Positions 8,719-33,567 of a DNA stretch of 34,347 nt are shown here, one piece after another. The stretch comes from a virus (taxonomy: Duplodnaviria; Heunggongvirae; Uroviricota; Caudoviricetes): IMG/VR virus record IMGVR_UViG_2693429686_000003; one strand, written 5' to 3'. The position numbers and the translations under genes were made by a program. The notes under the pieces are model-generated. The model searched no databases. It saw only the letters and a program-made list of their open reading frames with translations, and was not told where the DNA came from. How positions within the stretch are numbered: position 1 is the stretch's first letter; the number at the start of each line of letters is the position of its first letter.

Positions 8719-8729
8719 CGGGAGGCGCT

Positions 8730-9083: not shown

Positions 9084-9094
9084 AAGGGGGATGT

Positions 9095-9673: not shown

Positions 9674-10065
9674 AACATACTGAACTCCGTGCAGCCGTAC
9701 TGGATGCACTGGAGAAGCATGACACCGGGGCGACGCTTTTTGATGGTCGCCCCGCTGTTTTTGATGAGGAAGATTTTCCGGCAATTGCCGTTTATCTCAC
9801 CGGCGCTGAATACACGGGCGAAGAGCTGGACAGCGATACCTGGCAGGCGGAGCTGCATATTGAAGTTTTCCTGCCTGCTCAGGTGCCGGATTCAGAGCTG
9901 GATTCGTGGATGGAGTCCCGGATTTATCCGGTGATGAGCGATATCCCGGCACTGTCAGATTTGATCACCAGTATGGTGGCCAGCGGCTATGACTACCGGC
10001 GCGACGATGATGCGGGCCTGTGGAGTTCAGCCGATCTGACTTATGTCATTATCTATGAAATGTGA
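9670..10065 (+). CDS. U: Tail tube terminator protein gpU
   Basis: 131-aa ORF matching lambda gpU; 4-bp overlap with Z. Confidence 0.95.
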
Positions 10066-10072
10066 GGACGCT

Positions 10073-10813: not shown

Positions 10814-10828
10814 TCCGGAGAGTCAGCG

Positions 10829-11251: not shown

Positions 11252-11667
11252 GTTTTGCCCTGAAACTGGCGCGTGAGATGGGGCGACCCGACTGGCGCGC
11301 CATGCTTGCCGGGATGTCATCCACGGAGTATGCCGACTGGCACCGCTTTTACAGTACCCATTATTTTCATGATGTTCTGCTGGATATGCACTTTTCCGGG
11401 CTGACGTACACCGTGCTCAGCCTGTTTTTCAGCGATCCGGAGATGCATCCGCTGGATTTCAGTCTGCTGAACCGGCGCGAGGCTGACGAAGAGCCTGAAG
11501 ATGATGTGCTGATGCAGAAAGCGGCAGGGCTTGCCGGAGGTGTCCGCTTTGGCCCGGACGGGAATGAAGTTATCCCCGCTTCCCCGGATGTGGCGGACAT
11601 GACGGAGGATGACGTAATGCTGATGACAGTATCAGAAGGGATCGCAGGAGGAGTCCGGTATGGCTGA
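11233..11667 (+). CDS. T: gpT reading frame, expressed as the gpGT fusion by -1 frameshift
   Basis: 144-aa ORF matching the lambda T region (…LSFALKLAREMGRPDWRAMLAGMSSTEYADWHRFY…) directly after the slippery site. Confidence 0.9.
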   Translation: MFDGELSFALKLAREMGRPDWRAMLAGMSSTEYADWHRFYSTHYFHDVLLDMHFSGLTYTVLSLFFSDPEMHPLDFSLLNRREADEEPEDDVLMQKAAGLAGGVRFGPDGNEVIPASPDVADMTEDDVMLMTVSEGIAGGVRYG

Positions 11668-14221
11668 ACCGGTAGGCGATCTGGTCGTTGATTTGAGTCT
11701 GGATGCGGCCAGATTTGACGAGCAGATGGCCAGAGTCAGGCGTCATTTTTCCGGTACGGAAAGTGATGCGAAAAAAACAGCGGCAGTCGTTGAACAGTCG
11801 CTGAGCCGACAGGCGCTGGCTGCACAGAAAGCGGGGATTTCCGTCGGGCAGTATAAAGCCGCCATGCGTATGCTGCCTGCACAGTTCACCGACGTGGCCA
11901 CGCAGCTTGCAGGGGGGCAGAATCCCTGGCTGATCCTGCTGCAACAGGGTGGTCAGGTTAAGGACTCCTTCGGCGGGATGATCCCCATGTTCAGGGGGCT
12001 TGCCGGCGCGATCACCCTGCCGATGGTGGGGGCCACCTCGCTGGCGGTGGCGACCGGTGCGCTGGCGTATGCCTGGTATCAGGGCAACTCAACCCTGTCC
12101 GATTTCAACAAAACGCTGGTCCTTTCCGGTAATCAGGCGGGACTGACGGCAGATCGTATGCTGGTCCTGTCCAGAGCCGGGCAGGCGGCAGGGCTGACGT
12201 TTAACCAGACCAGCGAGTCACTCAGCGCACTGGTTAAGGCGGGGGTAAGCGGTGAGGCTCAGATTGCGTCCATCAGCCAGAGTGTGGCGCGTTTCTCCTA
12301 TGCATCCGGCGTGGAGGTGGACAAGGTCGCTGAAGCCTTCGGGAAGCTGACCACAGACCCGACGTCGGGGCTGACGGCGATGGCACGCCAGTTCCATAAC
12401 GTGACGGCGGAGCAGATTGCGTATGTTGCTCAGTTGCAGCGTTCCGGCGATGAAGCCGGGGCATTGCAGGCGGCGAACGAGGCCGCAACGAAAGGGTTTG
12501 ATGACCAGACCCGCCGCCTGAAAGAGAACATGGGCACGCTGGAGACCTGGGCAGACAGGACTGCACGTGCATTCAAATCCATGTGGGATGCGGTGCTGGA
12601 TATTGGTCGTCCTGATACCGCGCAGGAGATGCTGATTAAGGCAGAGGCTGCGTTTAAGAAAGCAGACGACATCTGGAATCTGCGCAAGGATGATTATTTC
12701 GTTAACGATGAAGCACGGGCGCGTTACTGGGATGATCGTGAAAAAAAACGCCTGGAGCGGGATGCAGCCCAAAAGAGGGTAGATCAACAGCGTCAACAGG
12801 ACAAAAATGCGCAGCAGCAGAGCGATACCGAAGCGTCACGGCTGAAATATACCGAAGAGGCGCAGAAGGCTTACGAACGGCTGCAGACGCCGCTGGAGAA
12901 ATATACCGCCCGTCAGGAAGAACTGAACAAGGCACTGAAAGACGGAAAAATCCTGCAGGCAGATTACAACACGCTGATGGCGGCGGCGAAAAAGGATTAT
13001 GAAGCGACGCTGAAAAAGCCGAAACAGTCCGGCGTGAAGGTGTATGCGGGCGATCGTCAGGAAGACAGTGCTCATGCGGCCCTGCTGACGCTTCAGGCAG
13101 AACTCCGGACGCTGGAGAAGCATGCCGGAGCGAATGAGAAAATCAGCCAGCAGCGCCGGGATTTGTGGAAGGCAGAAAGTCAGTTCGCGGTACTGGAGGA
13201 GGCGGCACAACGTCGCCAGCTGTCCGCACAGGAGAAATCCCTGCTGGCGCATAAAGACGAGACGCTGGAGTACAAACGCCAGCTGGCTGCACTTGGTGAC
13301 AAGGTTACGTATCAGGAGCACCTGAATGCGCTGGCGCAGCAGGCGGATAAATTCGCACAGCAGCAACGGGCAAAACGGGCAGCCATTGATGCGAAAAACC
13401 GGGGGCTGACTGACCGGCAGGCAGCGCGGGAAGCCACGGAACAGCGCCTGAAGGAACAGTATGGCGATAATCCTCTGGCGCTGAATAACGTCATGTCAGA
13501 GCAGAAAAAGACCTGGGCGGCTGAAGACCAGCTTCGCGGGAGCTGGATGGCAGGCCTGAAGTCCGGCTGGAGTGAGTGGGAAGAGAGCGCCACGGACAGT
13601 ATGTCACAGGTTAAAAGTGCAGCCACGCAGACCTTTGATGGTATTGCACAGAATATGGCGGCGATGCTGACCGGCAGTGAACAGAACTGGCGCAGCTTCA
13701 CCCGCTCCGTGCTGTCCATGATGACAGAAATTCTGCTTAAGCAGGCAATGGTGGGGATTGTCGGGAGTATCGGCAGCGCCATTGGCGGGGCTGTTGGTGG
13801 CGGCGCATCCGCGTCAGGTGGTACAGCCATTCAGGCCGCTGCGGTGAAATTCCATTTTGCAACCGGGGGATTTACGGGAACCGGCGGCAAATATGAGCCA
13901 GCGGGGATTGTTCACCGTGGTGAATTTGTCTTCACGAAGGAGGCAACCAGCCGGATTGGCGTGGGGAATCTCTACCGGCTGATGCGCGGCTATGCGGAAG
14001 GTGGTTATGTGGGCGGTGCCGGAAGTCCGGCGCAGATGCGGCGGGCTGAAGGCATTAATTTTAATCAGAACAATCACGTGGTGATTCAGAACGACGGTAC
14101 GAATGGTCTGCCAGGTCCACAGATGATGAAGGCCGTGTATGACATGGCCCGCAAGGGTGCCCGTGATGAAATTCAGACACAGATGCGTGATGGTGGCCTG
14201 TTCTCCGGAGGTGGACGATGA
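11660..14221 (+). CDS. H: Tail tape-measure protein gpH
   Basis: 853-aa ORF, identical length and near-identical to recalled lambda gpH. Confidence 0.97.
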   Translation: MAEPVGDLVVDLSLDAARFDEQMARVRRHFSGTESDAKKTAAVVEQSLSRQALAAQKAGISVGQYKAAMRMLPAQFTDVATQLAGGQNPWLILLQQGGQVKDSFGGMIPMFRGLAGAITLPMVGATSLAVATGALAYAWYQGNSTLSDFNKTLVLSGNQAGLTADRMLVLSRAGQAAGLTFNQTSESLSALVKAGVSGEAQIASISQSVARFSYASGVEVDKVAEAFGKLTTDPTSGLTAMARQFHNVTAEQIAYVAQLQRSGDEAGALQAANEAATKGFDDQTRRLKENMGTLETWADRTARAFKSMWDAVLDIGRPDTAQEMLIKAEAAFKKADDIWNLRKDDYFVNDEARARYWDDREKKRLERDAAQKRVDQQRQQDKNAQQQSDTEASRLKYTEEAQKAYERLQTPLEKYTARQEELNKALKDGKILQADYNTLMAAAKKDYEATLKKPKQSGVKVYAGDRQEDSAHAALLTLQAELRTLEKHAGANEKISQQRRDLWKAESQFAVLEEAAQRRQLSAQEKSLLAHKDETLEYKRQLAALGDKVTYQEHLNALAQQADKFAQQQRAKRAAIDAKNRGLTDRQAAREATEQRLKEQYGDNPLALNNVMSEQKKTWAAEDQLRGSWMAGLKSGWSEWEESATDSMSQVKSAATQTFDGIAQNMAAMLTGSEQNWRSFTRSVLSMMTEILLKQAMVGIVGSIGSAIGGAVGGGASASGGTAIQAAAVKFHFATGGFTGTGGKYEPAGIVHRGEFVFTKEATSRIGVGNLYRLMRGYAEGGYVGGAGSPAQMRRAEGINFNQNNHVVIQNDGTNGLPGPQMMKAVYDMARKGARDEIQTQMRDGGLFSGGGR

Positions 14222-14547
14222 AAACCTTCCGCTGGAAAGTGAAACCCGGTATGGATGTGGCTTCGGCCCCTTCTGTAAGAAAGGTGCGCTTTGGTGATGG
14301 CTATTCCCAGCGAGCGCCTGCCGGGCTGAATGCCAACCTGAAAACGTACAGCGTGACGCTTTCTGTCCCCCGTGAGGAGGCCATGGTACTGGAGTCGTTT
14401 CTGGAAGAGCACGGGGGCTGGAAAGCCTTTCTGTGGACGCCGCCTTATGAGTGGCGGCAGATAAAGGTGACCTGCGCAAAATGGTCGTCGCGGGTCAGTA
14501 TGCTGCGTGTTGAGTTCAGCGCAGAGTTTGAACAGGTGGTGAACTGA
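14218..14547 (+). CDS. M: Tail tip protein gpM (copy 1)
   Basis: 109-aa ORF matching lambda gpM (MKTFRWKVKPGMDVAS...). Confidence 0.95.
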   Translation: MKTFRWKVKPGMDVASAPSVRKVRFGDGYSQRAPAGLNANLKTYSVTLSVPREEAMVLESFLEEHGGWKAFLWTPPYEWRQIKVTCAKWSSRVSMLRVEFSAEFEQVVN

Positions 14548-15245
14548 TGCAGGATATCCGGCAGGAAACACTGAATGAATGCACCCGTGCGGAGCAGTCG
14601 GCCAGCGTGGTGCTCTGGGAAATCGATCTGACAGAGGTCGGTGGAGAACGTTATTTTTTCTGTAATGAGCAGAACGAAAAAGGTGAGCCGGTCACCTGGC
14701 AGGGGCGACAGTATCAGCCGTATCCCATTCAGGGGAGTGGTTTTGAACTGAATGGCAAAGGCACCAGTACGCGCCCCACGCTGATGGTTTCTAACCTGTA
14801 CGGTATGGTCACCGGGATGGCGGAAGATCTACAGAGTCTGGTCGGCGGAACGGTGGTCCGGCGTAAGGTTTACGCCCGTTTTCTGGATGCGGTGAACTTC
14901 GTCAACGGAAACAGTGACGCCGATCCGGAGCAGGAGGTGATCAGCCGCTGGCGCATTGAGCAGTGCAGCGAACTGAGCGCGGTGAGTGCCTCTTTTGTAC
15001 TGTCCACGCCGACGGAAACAGATGGCGCTGTTTTTCCGGGACGTATCATGCTGGCCAACACCTGCACCTGGACCTATCGCGGCGATGAGTGCGGTTATCA
15101 CGGTCCGGCGGTCGCGGATGAATATGACCAGCCAACGTCCGACATCACGAAGGATAAATGCAGCAAATGCCTGAGTGGCTGTAAGTTTCGCAATAACGTC
15201 GGCAACTTTGGCGGCTTCCTTTCCATTAACAAACTTTCGCAGTAA
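14547..15245 (+). CDS. L: Tail tip protein gpL (copy 1)
   Basis: 232-aa ORF matching lambda gpL. Confidence 0.95.
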   Translation: MQDIRQETLNECTRAEQSASVVLWEIDLTEVGGERYFFCNEQNEKGEPVTWQGRQYQPYPIQGSGFELNGKGTSTRPTLMVSNLYGMVTGMAEDLQSLVGGTVVRRKVYARFLDAVNFVNGNSDADPEQEVISRWRIEQCSELSAVSASFVLSTPTETDGAVFPGRIMLANTCTWTYRGDECGYHGPAVADEYDQPTSDITKDKCSKCLSGCKFRNNVGNFGGFLSINKLSQ

Positions 15246-15250
15246 ATCCC

Positions 15251-15994
15251 ATGACAGAGACAGAATCAGCGATTCTGGCGCACGCCCGGCGATGTGCTCC
15301 AGCGGAGTCGTGCGGCTTCGTGGTAAGAACGCCGGAGGGGGAAAGATATTTCCCCTGCGTGAATATCTCCGGTGAGCCGGAGGCGTATTTCCGTATGTCG
15401 CCGGAAGACTGGCTGCAGGCAGAGATGCAGGGTGAGATTGTGGCACTGGTCCACAGCCACCCCGGTGGTCTGCCCTGGCTGAGTGAGGCCGACCGGCGGC
15501 TGCAGGTGCAGAGTGATTTGCCGTGGTGGCTGGTCTGCCGGGGGGCGATTCACAAGTTCCGCTGTGTGCCACATCTTACCGGGCGGCGCTTTGAGCACGG
15601 GGTGACGGACTGTTACACGCTGTTCCGGGATGCTTACCATCTGGCGGGGATTGAGATGCCGGATTTTCATCGTGAGGATGACTGGTGGCGTCACGGTCAG
15701 AATCTCTATCTGGATAATCTGGAGGCCACAGGGCTGTATCAGGTGCCGTTGTCAGCGGCGCAGCCGGGCGATGTGCTGCTGTGCTGTTTTGGTTCATCGG
15801 TGCCGAATCATGCCGCCATTTACTGTGGTGACGGCGAGCTGCTGCACCATATTCCTGAACAACTGAGCAAACGAGAGAGGTATACCGACAAATGGCAGCG
15901 ACGCACACACTCCCTCTGGCGTCACCGGGCATGGCACGCATCTGCCTTTACGGGGATTTGCAACGATTTGGCCGCCGCATCGACCTTCGTGTGA
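15251..15994 (+). CDS. K: Tail tip assembly protein gpK (copy 1), with MPN/JAB-like HSHPGG motif and NlpC/P60-like C-terminal region
   Basis: 247-aa ORF; residues 49 onward match lambda gpK as classically annotated (199 aa); the upstream extension starts 6 nt after the L stop. Confidence 0.92.
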   Translation: MTETESAILAHARRCAPAESCGFVVRTPEGERYFPCVNISGEPEAYFRMSPEDWLQAEMQGEIVALVHSHPGGLPWLSEADRRLQVQSDLPWWLVCRGAIHKFRCVPHLTGRRFEHGVTDCYTLFRDAYHLAGIEMPDFHREDDWWRHGQNLYLDNLEATGLYQVPLSAAQPGDVLLCCFGSSVPNHAAIYCGDGELLHHIPEQLSKRERYTDKWQRRTHSLWRHRAWHASAFTGICNDLAAASTFV

Positions 15995-16563
15995 AAACGG
16001 GTGCCGAAGCCATCCGGGCGATGGCCACACAGCTCCCTGCGTTTCGTCAGAAGCTGAGCGACGGCTGGTATCAGGTGCGTATTGCCGGGCAGGATGTTAG
16101 CACGTCCGGATTAACGGCACAGTTACATGAGGCTCTGCCTGACGGCGCTGTGATTCATATTGTTCCCAGAGTCGCCGGGGCCAAGTCAGGTGGTGTATTC
16201 CAGATTGTCCTGGGAGCAGCCGCCATTGCCGGATCATTCTTTACCGCCGGAGCCACCCTTGCAGCATGGGGGGCTGCCATTGGTGCCGGTGGTATGACCG
16301 GCATTCTGTTTTCTCTCGGTGCCAGTATGGTGCTCGGCGGTGTGGCTCAGATGCTGGCACCGAAAGCCAGAACTCCCCGCACACAGACAACGGATAACGG
16401 TAAGCAGAACACCTATTTCTCCTCACTGGATAACATGGTTGCCCAGGGCAATGTTATGCCTGTTCTGTATGGTGAAATGCGCGTGGGGTCACGTGTGGTA
16501 TCTCAGGAGATCAGCACGGCAGACGAAGGGGACGGTGGTCAGGTTGTGGTGATTGGTCGCTGA
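15892..16563 (+). CDS. I: Tail tip assembly protein gpI (copy 1)
   Basis: 223-aa ORF matching lambda gpI; overlaps the K 3' end by about 100 nt as in lambda. Confidence 0.93.
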   Translation: MAATHTLPLASPGMARICLYGDLQRFGRRIDLRVKTGAEAIRAMATQLPAFRQKLSDGWYQVRIAGQDVSTSGLTAQLHEALPDGAVIHIVPRVAGAKSGGVFQIVLGAAAIAGSFFTAGATLAAWGAAIGAGGMTGILFSLGASMVLGGVAQMLAPKARTPRTQTTDNGKQNTYFSSLDNMVAQGNVMPVLYGEMRVGSRVVSQEISTADEGDGGQVVVIGR

Positions 16564-16623
16564 TGCAAAATGTTTTATGTGAAATCGCCTCCGGGCGGTT
16601 TTATCGTTTATGGAGCATGACGA

Positions 16624-19152
<2,529 letters not shown>

Positions 19153-19196
19153 NTGAGGTGTACTGGCAATAGCGGACACTACCATTTGTTCTTTTT

Positions 19197-20015
19197 TTAA
19201 GCAGCCATCTGATGATATTTTTCCCTGAAGGCTGCCGGGGAGATATTCCCCAGACGAGAGTGACGACGCTGACGATTGTAGAAAATCTCAATGTATTCCC
19301 GTATTACTGAGATGGCTTCATCCCGGTTATTAAAACGATAGTGGCTCAGGCTCTCATTTTTCAGCGTTCCCCAGAAGCTTTCCATCGGAGCGTTGTCGTA
19401 ACAGTTACCTTTACGCGACATTGATGTTTTCAGACCAGACTGCTCCTGTATGACCCGGTAATCGTATGCGCAGTACTGTGAACCTCGATCAGAGTGGTGG
19501 ATTAGCCCGGCAGGTGGGCGCTGGCTCCTGAGCGCCATAAACAGGGCTTTACCTGTCAGCTCTTTTGTCATGCGCTCTCCCATGGCGTAGCCGACAATTT
19601 CGCACGTATAAACATCTTTGATGCCAGCGAGGTACAACCATCCCTCCTGTGTGGCAACATACGTCAGGTCCGCCACCCAGACCTGATTTGGTGCTGTAGG
19701 AGCGAACGTCTGGTTCAGCAGATTTGGCGCAACTGGCAGATTGTGGTTCGAGTTCGTAGTCGCTCTGAACTTGCGTTTCTGCTTACAGCGTAGCCTTAGC
19801 TCCTTACGAAGACGTGCCAGTCGGTCACGACCAACGATGATGCCATTCTCTGCCAGCTCCGTCTGGAGCCGCCGGGTTCCATATGTTTCGCGAGTGCGGA
19901 TATGTGCCACCTTAATCTCCAGTTTTAGCCGCTCATCACTTTGTTTTCTGTCTGAGGGTTCATGCTGTACCCAGTTGTAATAACCGCTCCTGGATACACC
20001 AAATACCTGACACAT
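19197..20015 (-). CDS. IS3-family transposase OrfB (DDE integrase domain); made in vivo as an OrfAB fusion
   Basis: 272-aa ORF with the recognisable IS3-family catalytic region (…VWVADLTYV…HSDRGSQY…GNCYDNAPMESFWGTLK…). Confidence 0.9.
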   Translation of the reverse strand: MCQVFGVSRSGYYNWVQHEPSDRKQSDERLKLEIKVAHIRTRETYGTRRLQTELAENGIIVGRDRLARLRKELRLRCKQKRKFRATTNSNHNLPVAPNLLNQTFAPTAPNQVWVADLTYVATQEGWLYLAGIKDVYTCEIVGYAMGERMTKELTGKALFMALRSQRPPAGLIHHSDRGSQYCAYDYRVIQEQSGLKTSMSRKGNCYDNAPMESFWGTLKNESLSHYRFNNRDEAISVIREYIEIFYNRQRRHSRLGNISPAAFREKYHQMAA

Positions 20016-20050
20016 CGCTTCAATGGGAAATTGTTGTCGCCATTGTTCGA

Positions 20051-20353
20051 TTAACGCGTATTTTTCAGCGACTCCTGTGCAAAATACGCTGTTGCTTTTT
20101 TTAATATATCTCGCTCAAGGCGAGCTTCATTTAACGCCTTACGCAGTTGCAGAATTTCAGATTCCAGTTCAGCCACCGTGCGGGAACCAGGAGTACCGAG
20201 CCCTTTTCTGGCGGCGGTAACCCATTGTCCTAAAGTGCCTTCAGGAAGAGATAATCGGGAAGCGCCTTCACTGATCGAAAGTTGATTTTCAGGAACCGTT
20301 CTGACAGCTTCGGCTTTGAACTCTTTAGAGTAACGTTGGGTTTTTCTGCTCAT
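20051..20353 (-). CDS. IS3-family transposase OrfA (HTH DNA-binding, leucine-zipper-like C-terminus)
   Basis: 100-aa ORF MSRKTQRYSKEFKAEAVRTV..., as recalled for IS600 OrfA. Confidence 0.88.
   Translation of the reverse strand: MSRKTQRYSKEFKAEAVRTVPENQLSISEGASRLSLPEGTLGQWVTAARKGLGTPGSRTVAELESEILQLRKALNEARLERDILKKATAYFAQESLKNTR
20096..20102 (-). promoter_or_regulatory. A7 slippery run (T7 on the plus strand) at the orfA 3' end: predicted -1 frameshift site for OrfAB
   Basis: The minus strand reads ...TTA AAA AAA GCA... in the orfA frame just before its stop; A6G/A7 motifs are the usual IS3-family frameshift signal. Confidence 0.6.
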
Positions 20354-20417
20354 TATTAGCTCCTTCTGATGCCATTCTATTTCAGGAAGGAGTGTCCGTT
20401 AAACTCAGGCTACCTCA

Positions 20418-20757
20418 GTCTGCTGATTTGAGTCGCTACAGTGGCACGGTGGTTAACCGTCCGACGTTTTTTGCTTTTGCAAAAGGCGCGGGTGTGATGG
20501 GGGAAGCGGGACCTGAAGCCATTCTGCCACTGCGTCGCGGTGCTGATGGTAAGCTGGGGGGTGTGGCGGATACTGGTGGTTCAGGCATGGTGATGTTTGC
20601 CCCGCAGTACAACATTGAGATCAATAACGATGGCACGAACGGGCAGATAGGTCCGGCTGCCCTGAAGGTGGTTTATGACCTCGGGAAAAAAGCGGCCGCG
20701 GACTTTATGCAACAGCAGGCCCGTGATGGTGGCCGGTTAAGTGGAGCATACCGGTAA
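20418..20757 (+). pseudogene. H: 3' fragment (about 110 codons) of a divergent tape-measure gene H, fused to the IS end
   Basis: The translation aligns with the C-terminus of gpH (…NNDGTNGQIGPAALKVVYD…RDGG…) but differs from H copy 1; its stop overlaps the M2 start as H/M do. Confidence 0.8.
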
Positions 20758-21086
20758 TGGAGACGTTTCACTGGAAAGTGCGCCCGGATATGAATGTGGT
20801 ATCAGAGCCGAAAGTGGTGACAGTGAAGCTGGGCGATGGTTATGAACAGCGTCGTGCGGCGGGACTGAATAACCAGTTGTCGACTTACAGCGTGAAGATA
20901 CGTGTTCGTAAAGGTGAACACCCATTTTTAAAAGCCTTTCTGGAACGGCACGGTGGCGTCCGCGCATTTCAGTGGACGCCACCTTATGACTGGAAGCCGA
21001 TCAGGGTGGTTTGTCGTAAATGGTCGGCAAGCGTGGGGGCGTTGTGGGTAACCATAACGGCAGATTTTGAACAGGTCGTGGCATAG
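20757..21086 (+). CDS. M: Tail tip protein gpM (copy 2, divergent allele)
   Basis: 109-aa ORF METFHWKVRPDMNVVSEP..., same length as copy 1 and visibly divergent from it. Confidence 0.9.
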   Translation: METFHWKVRPDMNVVSEPKVVTVKLGDGYEQRRAAGLNNQLSTYSVKIRVRKGEHPFLKAFLERHGGVRAFQWTPPYDWKPIRVVCRKWSASVGALWVTITADFEQVVA

Positions 21087-21095
21087 GAGGCTCTG

Positions 21096-21794
21096 ATGCA
21101 GGATATTCCACAGGAAACACATCATGAGACGACACGCCTCACTCAGTCAGCCCAGGTGGTGCTCTGGGAAATCGATCTGACAGAGGTCGGTGGAGAACGT
21201 TATTTTTTCTGTAATGAGCAGAACGAAAAAGGTGAGCCGGTTACCTGGCAGGGGCGGCAGTATCAGGCATACCCCATTCAGGGGACGGGATTTGAACTGA
21301 ACGGCAAGGGCAGTGCTGCCCGTCCGACACTGACGGTTTCTAACCTGCACGGAATGGTCACCGGGATGGCGGAAGACCTGCAGAGTCTGGTCGGCGGAAC
21401 GGTGGTCAGGCGTAAGGTTTACGCCCGTTTTCTGGATGCGGTGAACTTCGTCAACGGAAACAGCGACGCCGATCCGGAACAGGAGGTGATCAGCCGCTGG
21501 CGCATCGAGCAGTGCAGCGAACTGAGCGCGGTCAGTGCCTCTTTTGTGCTGGCCACACCAACGGAGACGGATGGCGCGGTTTTCCCGGGGCGTATCATGC
21601 TGGCGAATACCTGTATGTGGACTTACCGTTCTGATGAGTGTGGTTACACGGGCAGGGCAGTGGCTGACGAGTTCGACAAACCAACGACGGATATCCGGAA
21701 GGACAAATGCAGCAAGTGTATGCGCGGGTGTGAGTTGCGCAACAATACCGGTAATTTCGGCGGTTTCCTTTCCATCAATAAACTTTCTCAGTAA
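21096..21794 (+). CDS. L: Tail tip protein gpL (copy 2)
   Basis: 232-aa ORF; the N-terminal ~25 residues differ from L copy 1 and the rest is nearly identical. Confidence 0.93.
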   Translation: MQDIPQETHHETTRLTQSAQVVLWEIDLTEVGGERYFFCNEQNEKGEPVTWQGRQYQAYPIQGTGFELNGKGSAARPTLTVSNLHGMVTGMAEDLQSLVGGTVVRRKVYARFLDAVNFVNGNSDADPEQEVISRWRIEQCSELSAVSASFVLATPTETDGAVFPGRIMLANTCMWTYRSDECGYTGRAVADEFDKPTTDIRKDKCSKCMRGCELRNNTGNFGGFLSINKLSQ

Positions 21795-21798
21795 ATCC

Positions 21799-22542
21799 AT
21801 GACACAGACAGAATCAGCGATTCTGGCGCACGCCCGGCGATGTGCGCCAGCGGAGTCGTGTGGCTTCGTGGTAAGAACGCCGGAGGGAGACAGGTATCTT
21901 CCCAGCGAGAATATCTCCGGTGAGCCGGAGGAACGGTTCCGGATGGCTCCGGAGGACTGGCTGCGGGCACAAATGCAGGGTGAGATTGTGGCGCTGGTCC
22001 ACAGTCATCCCGGTGGTCTGCCCTGGCTGAGTGAGGCTGACCGGCGGCTGCAGGTGCAGAGTGATTTGCCGTGGTGGCTGGTCTGCCGGGGGGCGATTCA
22101 CAAGTTCCGCTGTGTGCCGCATCTCACCGGGCGGCGCTTTGAGCACGGGGTGACGGACTGTTACACGCTGTTCCGGGATGCTTATCATCTGGCAGGGATT
22201 GAGATGCCGGATTTTCATCGCGGGGATGACTGGTGGCGTAACGGTCAGAATCTCTATCTTGACAATATGGAGGTGACGGGTTTTTACCGTGTCGCACTGA
22301 CAGAGGCACAGCCGGGCGATGTGCTGCTGTGCTGTTTTGGTTCATCGGTGCCGAATCATGCCGCCATTTACTGTGGTGACGGCGAGCTGCTGCACCATAT
22401 TCCTGAACAACTGAGCAAACGAGAGAGGTATACCGACAAATGGCAGCGACGCACACACTCCCTCTGGCGTCACCGGGCATGGCGCGCATCTGCCTTTACG
22501 GGGATTTACAACGATTTGGTCGCCGCATCGACCTTCGTGTGA
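21799..22542 (+). CDS. K: Tail tip assembly protein gpK (copy 2)
   Basis: MTQTESAILAHARRCAPAESCGF... begins at the ATG 5 nt after the L2 stop; nearly identical to K copy 1. Confidence 0.92.
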   Translation: MTQTESAILAHARRCAPAESCGFVVRTPEGDRYLPSENISGEPEERFRMAPEDWLRAQMQGEIVALVHSHPGGLPWLSEADRRLQVQSDLPWWLVCRGAIHKFRCVPHLTGRRFEHGVTDCYTLFRDAYHLAGIEMPDFHRGDDWWRNGQNLYLDNMEVTGFYRVALTEAQPGDVLLCCFGSSVPNHAAIYCGDGELLHHIPEQLSKRERYTDKWQRRTHSLWRHRAWRASAFTGIYNDLVAASTFV

Positions 22543-23081
22543 AAACGGGGGCTGAAGCCATCCGGGCACTGGCCACACAGCTCCCGGCGTTTCGTCAGAA
22601 ACTGAGTGACGGCTGGTATCAGGTGCGCATTGCCGGGCGTGATGCAGGTGAAACCGAATTGTCTGCCCGTCTTAATGAGCCGCTGGCAAATGGTGCAGTG
22701 ATCCACATAGTACCGCGTCTGGTGGGAGCTAAAAGTGGCGGTGTGTTTCAGGCGGTGCTGGGGGCGGCTGTTATGGCGGTTGCTATATGGATGCCGGGGG
22801 TAGGAATTATGGCGAGTAATCTGCTGTTTTCTCTCGGTGCCAGTATGACGCTTGGCGGTGTTGCACAGATGCTGGCACCGAAAGCCAGAACTCCCCGTAC
22901 ACAGACAACGGATAACGGTAAGCAGAACACGTATTTCTCGTCACTGGATAACATGGTTGCCCAGGGCAATGTTCTGCCCGTTCTGTACGGTGAAATGCGC
23001 GTGGGGTCACGTGTGGTTTCTCAGGAGATCAGCACGGCAGACGAAGGGGATGGTGGTCAGGTTGTGGTGATTGGTCGCTGA
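22440..23081 (+). CDS. I: Tail tip assembly protein gpI (copy 2; 213 aa with a divergent central segment)
   Basis: Matches gpI at both ends; the central hydrophobic segment differs from copy 1. Confidence 0.92.
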   Translation: MAATHTLPLASPGMARICLYGDLQRFGRRIDLRVKTGAEAIRALATQLPAFRQKLSDGWYQVRIAGRDAGETELSARLNEPLANGAVIHIVPRLVGAKSGGVFQAVLGAAVMAVAIWMPGVGIMASNLLFSLGASMTLGGVAQMLAPKARTPRTQTTDNGKQNTYFSSLDNMVAQGNVLPVLYGEMRVGSRVVSQEISTADEGDGGQVVVIGR

Positions 23082-23141
23082 TGCAAAATGTTTTATGTGA
23101 AACCGCCTGCGGGCGGTTTTGTCGTTTATGGAGCGTGAGGA

Positions 23142-26100
23142 ATGGGTAAAGGCAGCAGTAAGGGGCATACCCCGCGCGAAGCGAAGGACAACCTGAAATC
23201 CACGCAGTTGCTGAGTGTGATTGATGCCATCAGCGAAGGGCCGGTTGACGGTCCGGTGGATGGATTAAAAAGCGTGCTGCTGAACGGTACGCCGGTCCTG
23301 GACAGCGAGGGGAAGACAAACTTTTCCGGTGTTACGGTGGTGTTCCGTGCAGGTGAGCAGGAGCAGACACCGCCGGAGGGTTTTGAATCCTCCGGCTCCG
23401 AGACGGTGCTGGGTACGGAAGTGAAATATGACACGCCGATCACCCGGACCATCACGTCGGCAAACATCGACCGTCTGCGCCTGACCTTCGGTGTGCAGGC
23501 ACTGGTGGAAACCACCTCAAAGGGTGACCGGAATCCGTCGGAAGTCCGCCTGCTGGTTCAGATACAGCGTAACGGTGGCTGGGTGACGGAAAAAGACATC
23601 ACCATTAAGGGCAAAACCACTTCGCAGTATCTGGCCTCGGTGGTGGTGGGTAACCTGCCGCCGCGCCCGTTTAATATCCGGATGCGCAGGATGACACCGG
23701 ACAGCACCACAGACCAGCTGCAGAACAAAACGCTCTGGTCGTCGTACACCGAAATCATCGATGTGAAACAGTGCTACCCGAACACGGCGCTGGTCGGCGT
23801 GCAGGTGGATTCAGAGCAGTTCGGTAACCAGCAGGTGAGTCGCAATTATCATCTTCGCGGGCGCATTCTGCAGGTGCCGTCGAACTATAACCCGCAGACG
23901 CGGCAATACAGCGGTATCTGGGACGGAACGCTTAAGCCAGCATACAGCAACAACATGGCCTGGTGTCTGTGGGACATGCTCACTCATCCGCGCTACGGCA
24001 TGGGGAAACGTCTTGGTGCGGCAGATGTGGACAAATGGGCGCTGTATGTCATCGGCCAGTACTGCGACCAGTCAGTGACGGACGGATTTGGCGGCACGGA
24101 GCCGCGCATCACCTGTAACTCTTACCTGACCACACAGCGTAAGGCGTGGGATGTTCTCAGTGATTTCTGCTCGGCGATGCGCTGTATGCCGGTATGGAAC
24201 GGACAGATGCTGACGTTCGTGCAGGACCGACCGTCGGATAAGGTGTGGACCTATAACCGCAGTAATGTGGTGATGCCGGACGATGGCGCGCCGTTCCGCT
24301 ACAGCTTCAGCGCCCTGAAGGACCGCCATAATGCCGTTGAGGTGAACTGGATTGACCCAGATAACGGCTGGGAGACGGCGACAGAGCTTGTGGAGGATAC
24401 GCAGGCCATTGCCCGTTACGGTCGTAATGTCACGAAGATGGATGCCTTTGGCTGTACCAGCCGGGGGCAGGCACACCGAGCCGGGCTGTGGCTGATTAAA
24501 ACGGAACTGCTGGAGACGCAGACCGTGGATTTCAGCGTGGGTGCTGAAGGGCTTCGTCATGTACCGGGCGATGTCATTGAAATCTGCGATGATGATTATG
24601 CCGGTATCAGCACCGGTGGTCGCGTACTGGCGGTGAACAGCCAGACCCGGACGCTGACGCTCGACCGTGAAATCACGCTGCCGTCCTCCGGTACCACGCT
24701 GATAAGCCTGGTTGACGGAAGTGGCAATCCGGTCAGCGTGGAGGTCCAGTCCGTCACCGACGGCGTGAAGGTGAAAGTGAGCCGGGTTCCTGACGGCGTT
24801 GCAGAATACAGCGTGTGGGGGCTGAAGCTGCCGACGCTGCGCCAGCGTCTGTTCCGCTGCGTGAGTATCCGTGAGAACGACGACGGCACGTATGCCATCA
24901 CCGCCGTGCAGCATGTGCCGGAAAAAGAGGCCATCGTGGATAACGGGGCACACTTTGACGGTGACCGGCGCGGCACGGTGAATGGTGTCACGCCGCCAGC
25001 GGTGCAGCATCTGACCGCCGAAGTCACCGCAGACAGCGGGGAATATCAGGTGCTGGCGCGATGGGACACGCCGAAGGTGGTGAAGGGTGTGAGCTTCCTG
25101 CTTCGCCTGACCGTGGCAGCGGACGACGGCAGTGAGCGGCTGGTCAGCACAGCCAGGACGACGGAAACCACATACCGCTTCAGGCAGCTGGCGCTGGGGA
25201 ATTACAGTCTGACAGTCCGGGCGGTAAATGCCCGGGGGCAGCAGGGCGATCCGGCGTCGGTATCGTTCCGGATTGCGGCACCGGCAGCGCCTGTCACTAT
25301 TGAACTGATACCGGGGTATTTTCAGATAACGGCGGTCCCGAAACTGGCTGTATATGACCCGACGGTGCAGTTTGAGTTCTGGTTTTCGGAAAAGCGGATT
25401 GCGGATATCAGGCAGGTTGAAACCACAGCACGCTATCTTGGCACGGCGCTGTACTGGATAGCCGCCAGTATCAATATCAGGCCGGGCCATGATTATTATT
25501 TTTACGTTCGCAGTGTGAACACCGTTGGCAAATCGGCATTTGTGGAGGCCATCGGTCGGGCGAGCGATGATGCAGAAGGTTATCTGAATTTTTATAAAGG
25601 GTTGATCAATAAAACGCATCTCGGCAAGGAGTTGTGGACGCAGATTGATAACGGTCAGCTTGCGCCGGACCTGACTGAAATCAGGACGTCCATTACGAAT
25701 GTCAGCAATGAAATCACGCAAACCGTCAATAAAAAACTGGAAAATCAGAGTGCTGCAATCCAGCAGATACAGAAAGTTCAGGTTGATACAAATAATAACC
25801 TGAACAGCATGTGGGCTGTGAAGCTGCAACAGATGAAGGACGGACGCCTTTATATTGCGGGTATCGGTGCCGGTATTGAGAATACGCCAGCAGGAATGCA
25901 GAGTCAGGTGCTGCTGGCGGCAGACAGGATTGCGATGATTAATCCTGCGAATGGCAACACAAAGCCGATGTTTGTTGGTCAGGGCGATCAGATATTCATG
26001 AACGACGTGTTCCTGAAATGCCTGACGGCTCCGACCATTACCAGCGGCGGTAATCCTCCGGCATTTTCCCTGACACCTGGCGGACGGCTGACGGCGAAAA

Positions 26101-26621
26101 ATGCCGATATCAGCGGTAACGTGAACGCGAACTCCGGGACGCTCAACAACGTCACGATTAATAAGAACTGTCGGGTTCTGGGAAAATTGTCCGCGAACCA
26201 GATTGAAGGCGATCTCGTTAAAACAGTGGGCAAACCTTTCCCACGGGACTCCCGGGCACCGGAGAGGTGGCCATCAGGGACCATTACCGTCAGGGTTTAT
26301 GACGATCAGCCGTTTGATCGGCAAATTGTTATTCCCGCGGTGGCGTTTCGCGGTGCTAAACATGAGCGGAAGAATAACAATATTTATTCGTCATGCCGCC
26401 TGATAGTGAAGAAAAACGGTGCTGAAATTTATAACCGAACGACCCTGGATAATACGCTGATATATACGGGTGTTATTGATATGCCTGCCGGTCACGGTCA
26501 CATGACGCTGGAGTTTTCTGTATCGGCATGGCTGGTAAATGGCTGGTATCCCACAGCAAGTATCAGCGATTTGCTGGTTGTGGTGATGAAGAAAGCCACT
26601 GCAGGCATCACGATTAGCTGA
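23142..26621 (+). CDS. J: Central tail fibre/host-specificity protein gpJ (copy 2, intact, 1159 aa)
   Basis: Full-length ORF collinear with lambda gpJ (1132 aa); the N-terminal ~840 residues are almost identical to J copy 1. Confidence 0.96.
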
Positions 26622-26640
26622 ATTTTATAACCCAGATACG

Positions 26641-26666
26641 GGCACCAGAAATGGTGCCTTTTTTAT
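26641..26666 (+). terminator. Rho-independent terminator after J copy 2 (ggcacc-agaaat-ggtgcc + T6)
   Basis: Perfect 6-bp stem with T-run, 20 nt after the J2 stop and before the lom RBS. Confidence 0.7.
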
Positions 26667-26688
26667 TGCAGAAAAGCGAGAGGTAATT

Positions 26689-27288
26689 ATGCGTAAAGTT
26701 TGTGCAGCCATTTTGTCCGCAGCCATTTGCCTGGCCGTATCCGGTGCGCCTGCATGGGCGTCTGAACATCAGTCCACGCTGAGCGCCGGGTATCTTCAGA
26801 CCCATACTGATATGCCAGGCAGCGATGACCTGAAGGGCATTAACGTGAAATACCGTTATGAGTTTACGGACACGCTGGGGCTGATTACGTCATTCAGTTA
26901 TGCCAACGCTGAAGATGAGCAAAAAACGCATTACAGCGATACCCGCTGGCATGAGGATTCCGTGCGTAACCGCTGGTTCAGCGTGATGGCGGGGCCGTCT
27001 GTGCGCGTGAATGAATGGTTCAGCGCGTATGCGATGGCGGGCGTGGCTTACAGCCGTGTGTCGACCTTCTCCGGGGATTATCTCCGCGTAACTGACAACA
27101 AGGGGAAAACGCACGATGTGCTGACCGGAAGTGATGGCGGTCGCCACAGCAACACGTCTCTGGCGTGGGGGGCTGGCGTGCAGTTTAACCCGACCGAATC
27201 CGTGGCCATTGACCTTGCTTATGAAGGTTCCGGCAGTGGTGACTGGCGCACTGACGGTTTCATCGTGGGTGTCGGTTATAAGTTCTGA
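26689..27288 (+). CDS. lom: Outer-membrane beta-barrel protein Lom (Ail/Lom family), copy 1, intact
   Basis: 199-aa ORF with signal peptide (MRKVCAAILSAAICLAVSGAPAWA) and a C-terminal aromatic residue; lambda Lom-like. Confidence 0.93.
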   Translation: MRKVCAAILSAAICLAVSGAPAWASEHQSTLSAGYLQTHTDMPGSDDLKGINVKYRYEFTDTLGLITSFSYANAEDEQKTHYSDTRWHEDSVRNRWFSVMAGPSVRVNEWFSAYAMAGVAYSRVSTFSGDYLRVTDNKGKTHDVLTGSDGGRHSNTSLAWGAGVQFNPTESVAIDLAYEGSGSGDWRTDGFIVGVGYKF

Positions 27289-27351: not shown

Positions 27352-27678
27352 ATGGCAGTAAAGATTTCAGGTGTACTGAAAGATGGGGCGGGTAAACCTG
27401 TCGTAAATTGTGCGATTGAACTGCGGGCCAGAAGAACCAGTCCGACCGTTGTGGCACACGTTGTTGCCACTTGCGTGACGGACAATAACGGTGCTTATGT
27501 GATTGAGGCTGAGCCGGGGTATTACGAGGTTGCGCTTCACTGTAACGGCTGGCAGCCAACCCGTGTCGGGGATATTGATGTGGCACCGACTGATGCACCG
27601 GGGACACTGAACGCGTTTCTGAATGCACCAAAGGATGGTGATTTACGTCCGGAGGTGATGAAGTGTCAGCGCCAGTGA
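27352..27678 (+). pseudogene. stf: 5' fragment of a side tail fibre gene (stf allele B, about 104 codons), cut by the IS21-like end
   Basis: [17 protein letters not shown]... matches the conserved Stf N-terminus and diverges from the full stf at 29903; after …DLRPEVMK the sequence becomes the IS end (TGTCAGCGCCAGTG…). Confidence 0.8.
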
Positions 27679-27907
27679 TATAAGACGGTAATTCGCCATT
27701 TGGATTGTCCGCTCCACCCAACATGTTGTTTCCTTAAGGTTCTCACACCAGAAAGGACATCAACATGCTGAGCAGAGAGGACTTTTACATGATAAAGCAA
27801 ATGCGCCAGCAGGGCGCGTACATCGTCGATATTGCGACTCAGATTGGTTGCTCTGAACGGACGGTCAGACGCTACCTCAAATACCCTGAACCGCCAGCCA
27901 GAAAGAC
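27664..27907 (+). mobile_element. istA: Left end of an IS21-family element, including the first 47 codons of istA (27765-27907), truncated by the scaffold gap
   Basis: The terminus starts TGTCAGC…; ORF MLSREDFYMIKQMRQQGAYIVDIATQIGCSERTVRRYLKYPEPPARK matches my recollection of the IS21 IstA HTH N-terminus; it runs into NNNN. Confidence 0.6.
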
Positions 27908-27911
27908 NNNN
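27908..27911. other. Assembly gap (NNNN), a scaffold join
   Basis: Four ambiguous bases; sequence context changes abruptly from the IS21 istA 5' end to mid-J. Confidence 0.95.
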
Positions 27912-29251
27912 TTGAGCTGACGCCGGGCTATTTTCAGATAACCGCCACGCCGCATCTTGCGGTTTATGATCCGACGGTACAGTTTGAGTTCTGGTTCTCG
28001 GAAAAGCGGATTGCGGATATCAGGCAGGTTGAAACCACAGCACGCTATCTTGGCACGGCGCTGTACTGGATAGCCGCCAGTATCAATATCAAACCGGGCC
28101 ATGATTATTACTTTTATATCCGCAGTGTGAACACCGTTGGCAAATCGGCATTCGTGGAGGCTGTTGGTCAGCCGAGTGATGATGCATCCGGTTATCTGGA
28201 TTTTTTCAAAGGCGAGATAGGGAAAACCCATCTGGCTCAGGAGCTGTGGACGCAGATTGATAACGGTCAGCTTGCGCCTGACCTGGCTGAAATCAGGACG
28301 TCCATTACGGATGTCAGCAATGAAATCACGCAGACCGTCAATAAGAAACTGGAAGACCAGAGTGCGGCAATTCAGCAGATACAGAAGGTTCAGGTTGATA
28401 CAAATAATAACCTGAACAGCATGTGGGCTGTGAAGCTGCAGCAGATGCAGGACGGACGCCTTTATATCGCGGGTATTGGTGCCGGTATTGAGAACACCCC
28501 TGACGGCATGCAGAGTCAGGTGCTGCTGGCGGCGGACAGGATTGCGATGGTTAATCCTGCGAATGGCAACACAAAACCGATGTTTGTTGGTCAGGGCGAT
28601 CAGATATTCATGAACGACGTGTTCCTGAAACGCCTGACGGCCCCCACCATTACCAGCGGTGGAAATCCATCGGCATTTTCCCTGACTCCGGACGGAAAGC
28701 TGACCGCTAAAAATGCGGATATCAGTGGCAGTGTGAATGCGAACGCCGGGACGCTCAACAATGTCACGGTAAATGAAAACTGTACGATTAAGGGCATGCT
28801 GGAGGCGACTCAGGTCAGAGGTGACTTCGTTAAAGCTGTATCCAAATCATTTCCGAAACAGGCTGGTACGTGGGGTAACACGGAAACACCAAACGGGACG
28901 GTTACAGTCACCATAAGCGATGATCATAACTTTGACCGCCAGATTATTATTCCGCCCATTATTTTTAACGGTATAGCGTATGACGATCCGGGGAGCGGAA
29001 ATAACCCAGGAGGCACGCGATACACGGGTTATGGTTTTGAAGTTCGCAAAAACGGCGTATTAATCGCATCCAGAGAAACTAAAGGTGCCATTCCCGGTAG
29101 TTACAGTGCAGTTATTGATATGCCTAGTGGTGGTGGTAGCGTCACTCTGGAGTTTAAGATTTTCCAGAAAGGCAATCAGGGGGCAGGCAATATCACCGAC
29201 TGTACGGTGATTGTGACCAAAAAAGCGGCTTCCGGCATCAGTATTCGTTGA
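27912..29251 (+). pseudogene. J: 3' portion of J (allele 1), residues about 775 to the end, with a C-terminal domain unlike J copy 2
   Basis: 27912-28118 is identical to 18946-19152 (end of truncated J copy 1) and continues in the J frame (ORF 28127-29251 lies within it); the last ~145 residues differ from J copy 2. Confidence 0.85.
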
Positions 29252-29321: not shown

Positions 29322-29838
29322 ATGCGTAAAGTTTGTGCAGCCATTTTGTCCGCAGCCATTTGCCTGGCCGTATCCGGTGCGCCTGCATGGGCGTCTGAAC
29401 ATCAGTCCACGCTGAGCGCGGGGTATCTTCATGCCCGGACCAACGTTCCCGGCAGTGATGATCTGAACGGGATTAACGTGAAATACCGTTATGAGTTTAC
29501 GGATACGCTGGGGCTGGTGACGTCATTCAGCTATGCAGGAGACAAGAATCGCCAGCTGACCCGTTACAGCGATACCCGCTGGCATGAAGATTCCGTGCGT
29601 AACCGCTGGTTCAGCGTGATGGCGGGGCCGTCTGTGCGCGTGAATGAATGGTTCAGCGCGTATGCGATGGCGGGTGTGGCTTACAGCCGTGTGTCGACTT
29701 TTTCCGGGGATTATATCCGCGTAACTGACAATAAGGGGAAAACGCACGATGTGCTGACCGGAAGTGATGACGGTCGCCACAGCAACACGTCTCTGGCGCA
29801 CTGACGGTTTCATCGTGGGTGTCGGTTATAAATTCTGA
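29322..29838 (+). pseudogene. lom: lom copy 2 with an 83-bp internal deletion giving a frameshift and premature stop at 29804
   Basis: Identical to lom copy 1 in most of its length; sequence jumps from …acgtctctggcg to cactgacggtttcatcg…, omitting 83 bp present in copy 1, with the 6-bp repeat ctggcg at both deletion borders. Confidence 0.75.
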
Positions 29839-29891: not shown

Positions 29892-29902
29892 GTGGGGTGA
29901 AT

Positions 29903-32900
29903 ATGGCAGTAAAGATTTCAGGTGTACTGAAAGACGGCACAGGAAAACCGGTACAGAACTGCACAATCCAGCTGAAAGCAAAACGTAACAGCACCACGGT
30001 GGTGGTGAACACGCTGGCCTCAGAAAATCCGGATGAAGCCGGGCGTTACAGCATGGACGTTGAGTACGGTCAGTACAGCGTTATTCTGTTGGTGGAAGGA
30101 TTCCCGCCGTCACATGCCGGGACCATCACCGTGTATGAAGATTCCCGACCCGGTACGCTGAATGATTTTCTCGGTGCCATGACGGAGGATGATGCCCGTC
30201 CGGAGGCACTGCGCCGTTTTGAGCTGATGGTGGAAGAGGTGGCGCGTAACGCGTCCGCGGTGGCACAGAACACGGCAGCCGCGAAGAAATCAGCCAGCGA
30301 TGCCAGCACATCAGCCCGTGAGGCGGCAACCCATGCGACTGATGCTGCAGATTCAGCACGTGCAGCCAGCACGTCAGCCGGACAGGCCGCTTCGTCGGCT
30401 CAGTCAGCGTCTTCCAGCGCAGGAACGGCATCAACAAAGGCCACTGAAGCCTCAAAAAGTGCTGCCGCTGCAGAGTCCTCAAAAAGCGCGGCGGCTACCA
30501 GTGCCGGTGCGGCGAAAACGTTAGAAACGAATGCGGCAGCGTCACAACAATCAGCAGCCACTTCTGCATCCACCGCGACCACGAAAGCGTCAGAAGCTGC
30601 CACCTCAGCCCGGGATGCGTCGGCTTCAAAAGAGGCGGCAAAATCATCAGAAACGAACGCATCATCAAGCGCCAGTAGCGCAGCTTCCTCGGCGACGGCG
30701 GCTGCAAATTCTGCGAAGGCGGCCAAAACGTCCGAGACGAACGCCAGGTCTTCTGAAACGGCAGCGGGACAGAGTGCCTCAGCTGCGGCAGGCTCAAAAA
30801 CAGCGGCTGCGTCGTCTGCCAGCGCCGCGTCAACAAGTGCCGGGCAGGCCTCAGCCAGTGCCACCGCCGCCGGAAAATCGGCAGAAAGCGCCGCATCATC
30901 CGCTTCAACAGCCACAACGAAGGCTGGCGAAGCCACTGAGCAGGCCACGGCAGCAGCGAGGTCAGCTTCCGCAGCGAAGACATCCGAAACGAACGCGAAA
31001 GCGTCGGAAACCCGTGCAGAATCCTCAAAAACGGCTGCCGCATCGTCCGCCAGTTCGGCGGCGTCATCGGCATCATCGGCGTCTGCTTCAAAAGATGAGG
31101 CGACCAGACAGGCGTCAGCAGCGAAGGGCAGCGCCACGACGGCATCCACGAAGGCGACAGAGGCTGCTGGTAGTGCGACGGCAGCAGCTCAGAGCAAAAG
31201 TACGGCGGAATCTGCAGCAACGCGCGCTGAGACAGCGGCAAAACGGGCAGAGGATATTGCATCCGCCGTGGCGCTTGAGGATGCGAGCACGACGAAAAAG
31301 GGGATAGTACAGCTCAGTAGTGCGACTAACAGCACTTCCGAGTCACTGGCGGCAACACCAAAAGCCGTTAAGGCCGCGTATGACCTGGCTAACGGGAAAT
31401 ACACCGCACAGGATGCAACGACAGCACAGAAAGGGATAATCCAGCTAAGCAGCGCGACCAACAGCACGTCTGAAACGCTGGCGGCAACGCCAAAGGCAGT
31501 AAAAGCAGCCAATGACAATGCTGAGAAACGTCTGCAGAAAGATCAGAACGGTGCGGATATCCCTGGCAAAGACACCTTTACGAAAAATATTGGTGCCTGC
31601 CGTGCCTTCGGTGGGTCAGTAAGCACAACAACAGGAAACTGGACGACTGCACAGTTTATCGAGTGGCTGGATTCTCAGGGAGCATTTAACCATCCATACT
31701 GGATGTGCAAGGGTTCCTGGTCTTATGGCAATAATAAAATCATTACTGATACTGGCTGCGGTAATATTCATCTCGCCGGAGCTGTCATTGAAGTAATGGG
31801 GATAAAGTCAGCGATGACGATCCGCATTACCACTCCGACCACATCCAGCGGTGGCGGAACAACCAACGCCCAGTTTACCTATATTAATCACGGAACAGAT
31901 TATTCACCTGGCTGGCGAAGGGACTATAACTCCAGAAATAAGCCAACGGCATCAGAGATCGGGGCGCTACCGTCAGGTGGAACAGCAGTATCATCAGTTA
32001 ATCTGGCTTCAAAAGGTCGGGTAGCCGCGCTGACAGACAATACGCAGGGGGCAGCAGGTCTTGAGTTATACGAGGTGTATAACAACGGATATCCAACAGC
32101 GTATGGAAATATCATTCACCTGAAAGGGATGACAGCCGTTGGCGAAGGTGAGTTACTCATCGGCTGGAGTGGTACAAGCGGTGCTCATGCTCCGGCATTT
32201 ATTCGTTCACGACGGGATACGACCGACGCAAACTGGTCGCCGTGGGCGCAGCTTTACACCTCGGCTCATCCTCCTGCAGAGTTTTATCCAGTCGGTGCAC
32301 CAATCCCGTGGCCATCAGATACCGTTCCGTCTGGTTATGCCCTGATGCAGGGGCAGACTTTTGACAAATCTGCTTACCCGAAACTTGCAGCCGCTTATCC
32401 GTCAGGCGTGATCCCTGATATGCGTGGCTGGACGATTAAGGGCAAGCCCGCCAGTGGTCGTGCCGTATTGTCTCAGGAACAGGATGGCATTAAATCGCAC
32501 ACCCACAGCGCCAGCGCATCCAGTACGGATTTGGGGACGAAAACCACATCGTCGTTTGATTACGGCACTAAATCCACGAATAACACCGGGGCGCATACGC
32601 ACAGTCTGAGCGGCTCTACAAGTTCAGCTGGGGCCCACCAACATAGTCAGACTGGGCCCAGAACGAATAGCGGGAGTCAACCTACTGGAATGTTTCCGGC
32701 AGGGAGTACTCAAGTTAGCGGGACTAATCAGGTTGGTATCAGTGGCTCATTAACCAGTGGCACCTCCCAATGGGTAGGTAAATCATCTTCAGAAGGAAAC
32801 CATACACACTCACTGTCCGGCACAGCAGCATCTGCGGGTGCACACGCGCATACTGTCGGTATTGGTGCTCATACGCACTCTGTTGCGATTGGTTCACATG

Positions 32901-32986
32901 GACACACCATCACCGTTAACGCTGCTGGTAACGCGGAAAACACCGTCAAAAACATCGCATTTAACTATATTGTGAGGCTCGCATAA
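29903..32986 (+). CDS. stf: Side tail fibre protein Stf: conserved N-terminus, long Ala/Ser/Thr-rich repeat region, two phage-tail-fibre repeats (…[14 protein letters not shown](S/T)[11 protein letters not shown]…), His-rich C-terminus
   Basis: N-terminus ([30 protein letters not shown]…) and C-terminus (…[31 protein letters not shown]) match lambda Stf; the ORF is 1029 aa from GTG 29897 against 774 aa in lambda. Confidence 0.93.
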
Positions 32987-33567
32987 TGGCATTCAGAATG
33001 AGTGAACAAGCACGGACCATAAAAATTTATAACCTGCTGGCCGGAACTAATGAATTTATTGGTGAAGGTGACGCATATATTCCGCCTCATACAGGTCTGC
33101 CTGCAAACAGTACCGATATTGCACCGCCAGATATTCCGGCTGGTTTCGTGGCTGTTTTCAACAGTGATGAGTCATCGTGGCATCTCGTTGAAGATCATCG
33201 GGGTAAAACGGTTTATGACGTGGCTTCCGGCGACGCGTTATTTATTTCTGAACTCGGCTCATTACCGGAAAATGTCACCTGGTTATCCCCGGAAGGGGAG
33301 TTTCAGAAGTGGAACGGCACAGCCTGGGTGAAGGATACGGAAGCAGAAAAACTGTTCCGGATCCGGGAGGCGGAAGAAACAAAAAACAGCCTGATGCAGG
33401 TAGCCAGTGAGCATATAGCGCCGCTTCAGGATGCTGTGGATCTGGAGATCGCAACGGAGAAAGAAACCTTGTTGCTGGAAGCTTGGAAAAAGTATCGGGT
33501 GTTGCTGAACCGTGTTGATACATCAACTGCACCGGATATTGAATGGCCAGTAGCACCTATAGGGTAA
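32986..33567 (+). CDS. tfa: Tail fibre assembly chaperone Tfa
   Basis: 193-aa ORF matching lambda Tfa ([61 protein letters not shown]…); start overlaps the stf stop (TAATG). Confidence 0.94.

Follow-up and report, generated by a model that had tools for sequence, protein, structure and literature searches.

An apparent IS600 insertion in gene J of an S. sonnei prophage scaffold is very probably a draft-assembly artefact

The exact 207-bp repeat that makes gene J look interrupted by IS600 in this prophage is best explained, with a probability that we put at about 0.93, by a draft-assembly artefact, i.e., the false scaffold join of one contig (C3) between two overlapping contigs (C2 and C4) of a single intact J gene. 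The window, meaning the whole stretch of 34,347 nucleotides analyzed here, is the complete draft scaffold CXBT01000039.1 (GCA_001248315.1), and all of the 21,206 bases compared were the same in both. As expected of such an artefact, both copies of the repeat abut gap characters, dropping C3 and merging the overlaps restores J and its locus, and the intervening piece sits elsewhere in finished genomes. The repeat holds no new biology, and its value is mainly one of caution.

Characters other than A, C, G and T were found in the window at three sites only, a single N at 18186, another at 19153 and the NNNN at 27908 to 27911. These sites are piece boundaries that split the scaffold into four contigs, C1 to C4 (Table 1), of which C1, C2 and C4 carry parts of one J gene (J1) and C3 carries a second tail module (module 2) with its own complete J (J2). 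C1 showed 96 to 97.5% identity to phage lambda and its relatives over 18 kb, and its segment from 10192 to 18185 was 99.9% identical to S. sonnei Ss046, 53G and 75/02. C4 matched S. sonnei 75/02 (locus L020) and one further locus (L016) at every one of its 6436 bp. C3 stops inside an IS21-family element.

Table 1. Features of the window, with positions counted from its first letter
Feature	Position	Strand	Size	Remarks
C1	1-18185	+		Lambda-like prophage late region, from the terminase genes to the first 1562 nt of J1 (start 16624)
Join C1/C2	18186	.	single N	Contig ends overlap imperfectly and are unmerged
C2	18187-19152	+	966 bp	Internal piece of J1
Repeat, copy A	18946-19152	+	207 bp	3' end of C2; maps to Ss046 locus L024, 8591-8797
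Join C2/C3	19153	.	single N	Apparent "IS600 insertion point"
C3	19154-27907			IS600, H', M, L, K, I, J2, lom, stf', IS21'
IS600	19154-20417	-	1264 bp	Full-length, at the left end of C3; orfB 19197-20015, orfA 20051-20353
Module 2	20418-27288	+		H' 3' remnant (to 20757; last 340 bp of the tape-measure gene), M, L, K, I, J2, lom
J2	23142-26621		1159 aa	Complete second J, in module 2
lom, module 2	26689-27288		199 aa
stf' into IS21-family left end	27352-27907	+		stf' 27352-27678 (108 aa); IS21 left boundary approximate (about 27664); istA' start 27765
Gap C3/C4	27908-27911	.	NNNN	Residual scaffold gap
C4	27912-34347	+		3' part of J1 (to 29251), lom1, stf, tfa
Repeat, copy B	27912-28118	+	207 bp	5' end of C4
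lom1	29322-29804		160 aa	In C4
stf	29897-32986			In C4
tfa	32986-33567			In C4

A previous reading of the sequence alone had reported the identity of the two copies, and direct comparison within the window agreed at all positions (207/207). When both copies were compared outward, the identity could not be extended to the left or to the right. Copy A is followed by the N at 19153 and then by the IS600 terminus (TGAGGTG), while copy B is preceded by the NNNN and continues from 28119 onwards into open J, as had also been noticed. The corresponding stretch of the J2 paralogue (25300 to 25506) was only 89.4% identical, and at that level 207 consecutive matches would arise with a P of about 8e-11, so the exact match is due neither to chance nor to ordinary paralogy. 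In finished Ss046, both copies map to a single interval, positions 8591 to 8797 of its J1 locus (L024).

The finished chromosomes referred to here are those of S. sonnei Ss046 (CP000038), 53G (HE616528), 75/02 (CP019689) and FORC_011 (CP010829) (PMC5447701). Comparison of the J1 locus returned 10 loci, six of them on contigs larger than 4.7 Mb, and four of these six are the named finished S. sonnei chromosomes. The order H (853 aa)-M-L-K-I-J (1165 aa)-lom (160 aa), followed by stf (usually 1027 to 1029 aa) and tfa and with J uninterrupted, was found in eight of the 10; J was 1165 aa long in all four named chromosomes, two loci had broken or shorter J calls, and IS600 was found inside J in none of the 10. 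Along the Ss046 locus the pieces of the window were collinear, with positions 1 to 7994 corresponding to C1 (99.9%), 7834 to 8797 to C2 (98.3%) and 8591 to 13788 to C4 (100%), and the reference overlaps of C1/C2 and C2/C4 measured exactly 161 and 207 bp. Merged at these overlaps, the three contigs yielded a J open reading frame of 3498 nt with one terminal stop (1165 aa), indicating that the 3' piece of J is the direct continuation of the 5' pieces in the window. When C3 and the overlaps were removed, the window aligned to 75/02 without gaps over 15,026 bp, with 15 mismatches. Because the Ss046 locus is collinear, the merged frame open and the merged window gap-free, C2 and C4 are adjacent overlapping pieces of J, and the 207-bp repeat is their unmerged overlap within one intact gene. 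The intact J allele that the sequence-only reading had placed elsewhere in the genome is thus not needed, since C1, C2 and C4 supply it within the window itself. Altogether, these three contigs resemble the lambda-like prophage of Ss046, 53G and 75/02 (intact 1165-aa J, 160-aa lom, stf and tfa) at 99.9 to 100% identity and with equal gene order, and the draft differs from it by 15 J2-type bases in J1 and by the foreign contig C3.

The duplication at the C2/C4 ends was correctly recognized in that reading, but a similar one around the N at 18186 had escaped it. There, the ends of C1 and C2 (18025 to 18185 and 18189 to 18349) overlap by 161 bp at about 92% identity, and both flanks map to one reference interval (L024, 7834 to 7994). 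This join makes J1 seem frameshifted, with two open reading frames of 552 and 297 aa that the public record annotates as genes. It bears the signature of an unmerged overlap without any IS element.

As judged by its matches in other genomes, C3 is a real, IS-bounded remnant of a different and degenerate prophage. S. sonnei FORC_011 and Ss046 both have its module 2 segment, at 99.8% identity, and both of its junctions are present in other assemblies, IS600/H' in hundreds of them and stf'/IS21 in six IMG/VR contigs; the latter had no match among the GTDB species representatives, a collection in which a suitable genome of S. sonnei is evidently missing. In most drafts, a C3-like segment forms a separate IS-bounded contig of 5 to 10 kb. 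The order in finished chromosomes is Q antiterminator, IS600 and H'-M-L-K-I-J-lom-stf'::IS21::IS600, followed by transporter genes. In all three chromosomes in which both loci were located, module 2 and J1 lie about 675 kb apart in like orientation: Ss046 (module 2 at 1,862,591 to 1,882,956 and J1 locus at 2,538,456 to 2,558,938), CBDDMI010000001 (1.94 and 1.27 Mb, respectively) and JBEAAC010000002 (3.04 and 3.72 Mb). Doubt had already been cast on J-5'/IS600/module 2/IS21/gap/J-3' as the real linear order, and the uninterrupted J of finished S. sonnei together with this distance bears it out. Regarding the nested IS elements of this remnant, the tail-fiber gene of module 2 ends after about 104 codons in the IS21-family element that interrupts it, and this element is itself broken by IS600 in the complete chromosomes examined, and in FORC_011 (L008, 10001 to 13811) genes of an ABC-3/ZnuA-family transporter are found just past IS21/IS600.

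The left end of C3 differs from the finished version of this lambdoid remnant, with which it otherwise shares both IS junctions. Matching copies of the element carry the RefSeq label "IS3-like element IS600 family transposase." In six longer loci (three multi-Mb chromosomes and three draft contigs), the IS600 adjoining H' consists of just the last 255 to 482 bp, fused to another IS600, so the full-length copy in C3 is probably a collapsed consensus, in which the draft would have merged the nested or tandem copies to the left of H' into one. Strains differ in the IS600 fused to the H'-side fragment, which may be either full-length or internally deleted (loci L037, L032 and L008, near 8460 to 9990). 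Read directly in Ss046, the outer flank of the fused IS600 is Q-side DNA (...GGATAGAGTG followed by TGAGGTG) and not J, and the gene order of the other chromosomes agrees with this.

The sequence-only reading had taken the end of copy A for an IS insertion point in J and had considered the coexistence of IS600-bearing and IS-free forms. A real insertion of IS600 in J1, carried by a fraction of the sequenced population or by another copy of J1 and assembled along with the uninterrupted form, would explain why C2 stops one base (the N) before a precise IS600 terminus, and active copies of IS600 are indeed numerous in S. sonnei, with several in each 20-kb locus. We nevertheless consider it very unlikely. 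Insertion of an IS3-family element is expected to leave a short (3-bp) direct target duplication at its flanks, and none is present around this IS600, where the left side reads ...TTATA(N) and the right side GTCTGC... (ATA(N) versus GTC). No J sequence follows on its far side either, which is the 3' end of the H (tape-measure) gene of the other prophage, in the ancestral IS600/H' junction shared by so many assemblies. The J/IS600 junction was found in no finished genome searched; neither IS600 junction was found in complete E. coli genomes, and a pattern scan of IMG/VR gave no match to J/IS600, with the qualification that the N of the pattern may miss a literal N. A single sequence, CP101292, matched with at least 80% coverage (87%), but its match spans about 600 bp more than the query and belongs to a different site. 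In addition, the sister draft CXAW01000054 (L038) is joined at other positions of both J1 and IS600, its J1 part breaking off at reference position 7805 and its module 2 part starting 99 bp before H', and the artefact of identical type at 18186 involves no IS. The case thus shares with a genuine IS600 insertion the precise terminus adjoining a coding sequence, but it differs in the absence of a target duplication, in a distal flank that comes from another locus and in the uninterrupted target within the same assembly. Coexisting forms need not be invoked, and the outer end of this IS600 abuts Q-side DNA in finished genomes. Because J is uninterrupted in finished genomes, C3 lies elsewhere, the outer end of its IS600 is never at J and breakpoints differ in sister drafts, we see no evidence for IS600 in J, and the supposed insertion point is only a contig join marked by N.

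A genuine rearrangement, in which prophage recombination through J/J2 or IS600 homology brought module 2 into J1 or beside it, seems to us extremely unlikely. The tail modules of the J1 prophage and module 2 are direct repeats with 88 to 95% identity, and a similar adjacency of J1 and module 2 is seen in more than one draft, both of which would suit recombination. However, direct repeats about 675 kb apart, as in the three chromosomes, would give a deletion or duplication of 675 kb rather than an insertion of 8.7 kb, and recombination does not predict that contig ends at the N joins overlap perfectly or almost so, nor that merging leaves the frame open. The breakpoints also vary between drafts. 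The sister drafts CXAW01000054, CXFM01000166 and IMG/VR contig L006 chain paralogous modules through N joins at different places: CXFM01000166 has two copies of module 2 in series and then a piece of the J1 locus, and L006 has two J2 pieces followed by a J1 contig that runs unbroken through the supposed insertion site. In CXFO01000210.1 (L005/L011; 1 to 1079 versus 1070 to 4748; window equivalent 24039 to 24188), where no N is present, about 150 bp of J2 were seen to be duplicated in tandem, which suggests that some false merges in sister drafts carry no gap character.

Returning to the assembly artefact, we infer that it arose by a false join followed by gap filling. The window is a short-read draft scaffold of an S. 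sonnei isolate, made of four contigs joined at N sites, with C1, C2 and C4 as consecutive overlapping pieces of one lambda-like prophage with an uninterrupted J. The scaffolder very probably threaded C3, a remnant with paralogous M-L-K-I-J-lom genes bounded by IS600 and IS21, between C2 and C4. Gap filling would then have grown the contig edges along their true neighbors, C2 rightwards and C4 leftwards over the same stretch of J1, and the presence of C3 in between would have kept the two extensions apart, leaving the 207-bp duplicate with one N on one side and four on the other. The edge of C3 would have run through the consensus IS600 and halted at the terminus, where the many genomic copies diverge, and this stop would make it seem as if IS600 had inserted into J.

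Such behavior is consistent with the software probably involved. The neighboring accession prefixes CXBN, CXBR and CXBV are S. sonnei drafts from the collection of Holt et al. 2012 (PMC5447701), and from these neighbors CXBT was presumably made by the Sanger pipeline of Velvet, SSPACE and GapFiller. In this pipeline, SSPACE links Velvet contigs on as few as five read pairs and 120 GapFiller iterations follow, and its authors call SSPACE and GapFiller greedy and prone to false joins (PMC5320598). GapFiller adds single bases to each edge of a gap, requires overlapping extensions and a fitting size before it closes the gap, and stalls in repeats with balanced alternatives (PMC3446322). With misjoins of this type at prophage and IS repeats, the window shares N-marked joins, unmerged overlapping contig ends, contig ends at the IS600 terminus and inside IS21, a scaffold stop about 25 bp before IS1, an order in conflict with finished genomes and recurrence in sister drafts; nothing substantive sets it apart, the assembler run for CXBT being the presumed one. 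Reference-guided contig ordering (ABACAS-like) was discarded as the cause, since it would yield one pseudomolecule and not a 34-kb scaffold.

The merged J1 differs from the reference J1 (five S. sonnei loci, including three named finished chromosomes) at 15 positions, and at all of them (15/15) it has the base of J2. They are located at 17103 to 17226, 18165 to 18174 and 18487 to 18615 (J positions 480 to 603 and 1542 to 1828). Compared with Ss046, C2 had 16 mismatches, all between 18191 and 18615, of which 13 were the J2 base and three were of neither type. Its 5' 430 bp are a mosaic of J2-type and other paralogue bases, and its 3' 537 bp are identical to the reference J1. No exact natural source of the 5' part was found, as the closest of the 9,009 J places examined in complete E. 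coli genomes reached 97.1%; its best match among the fetched loci (99.3%) was in other drafts and in J2 context. The bases of neither type hint at a third J paralogue or a chimera of the assembly graph, and the J2-type bases are most simply explained by paralogue cross-talk in the short-read assembly. A real conversion of J1 by J2 across 675 kb is an unlikely alternative source of them, and a minority subpopulation with IS600 in J1 is likewise unlikely.

These results call for caution among users of CXBT01000039.1 and its sister drafts, which hold chained paralogous prophage tail modules. As annotated, J of CXBT01000039.1 consists of open reading frames of 552 and 297 aa and then a 374-aa 3' fragment, with an apparent disruption by IS600. 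Such scaffolds, or the IMG/VR contigs derived from them, would mislead the scoring of prophage integrity, IS sites, J pseudogenization and tandem tail modules.

Some minor features of C4 were also observed. The scaffold ends at 34347, about 25 bp short of the insA gene of IS1 in complete genomes (L016, 15026 to 15326); short-read contigs typically break in this way at multicopy IS elements. The lom1 product is 160 aa long compared to 199 aa for that of module 2, due to an 83-bp deletion. All 10 loci returned, the finished S. sonnei chromosomes among them, have the truncated lom, as do 1212 blocks in the collection index, so the truncation is real and widespread. Finally, the tfa region from 33109 to 33173 differs in length by about 63 bp from Ss046 and 53G, while 75/02 and L016 match it exactly.
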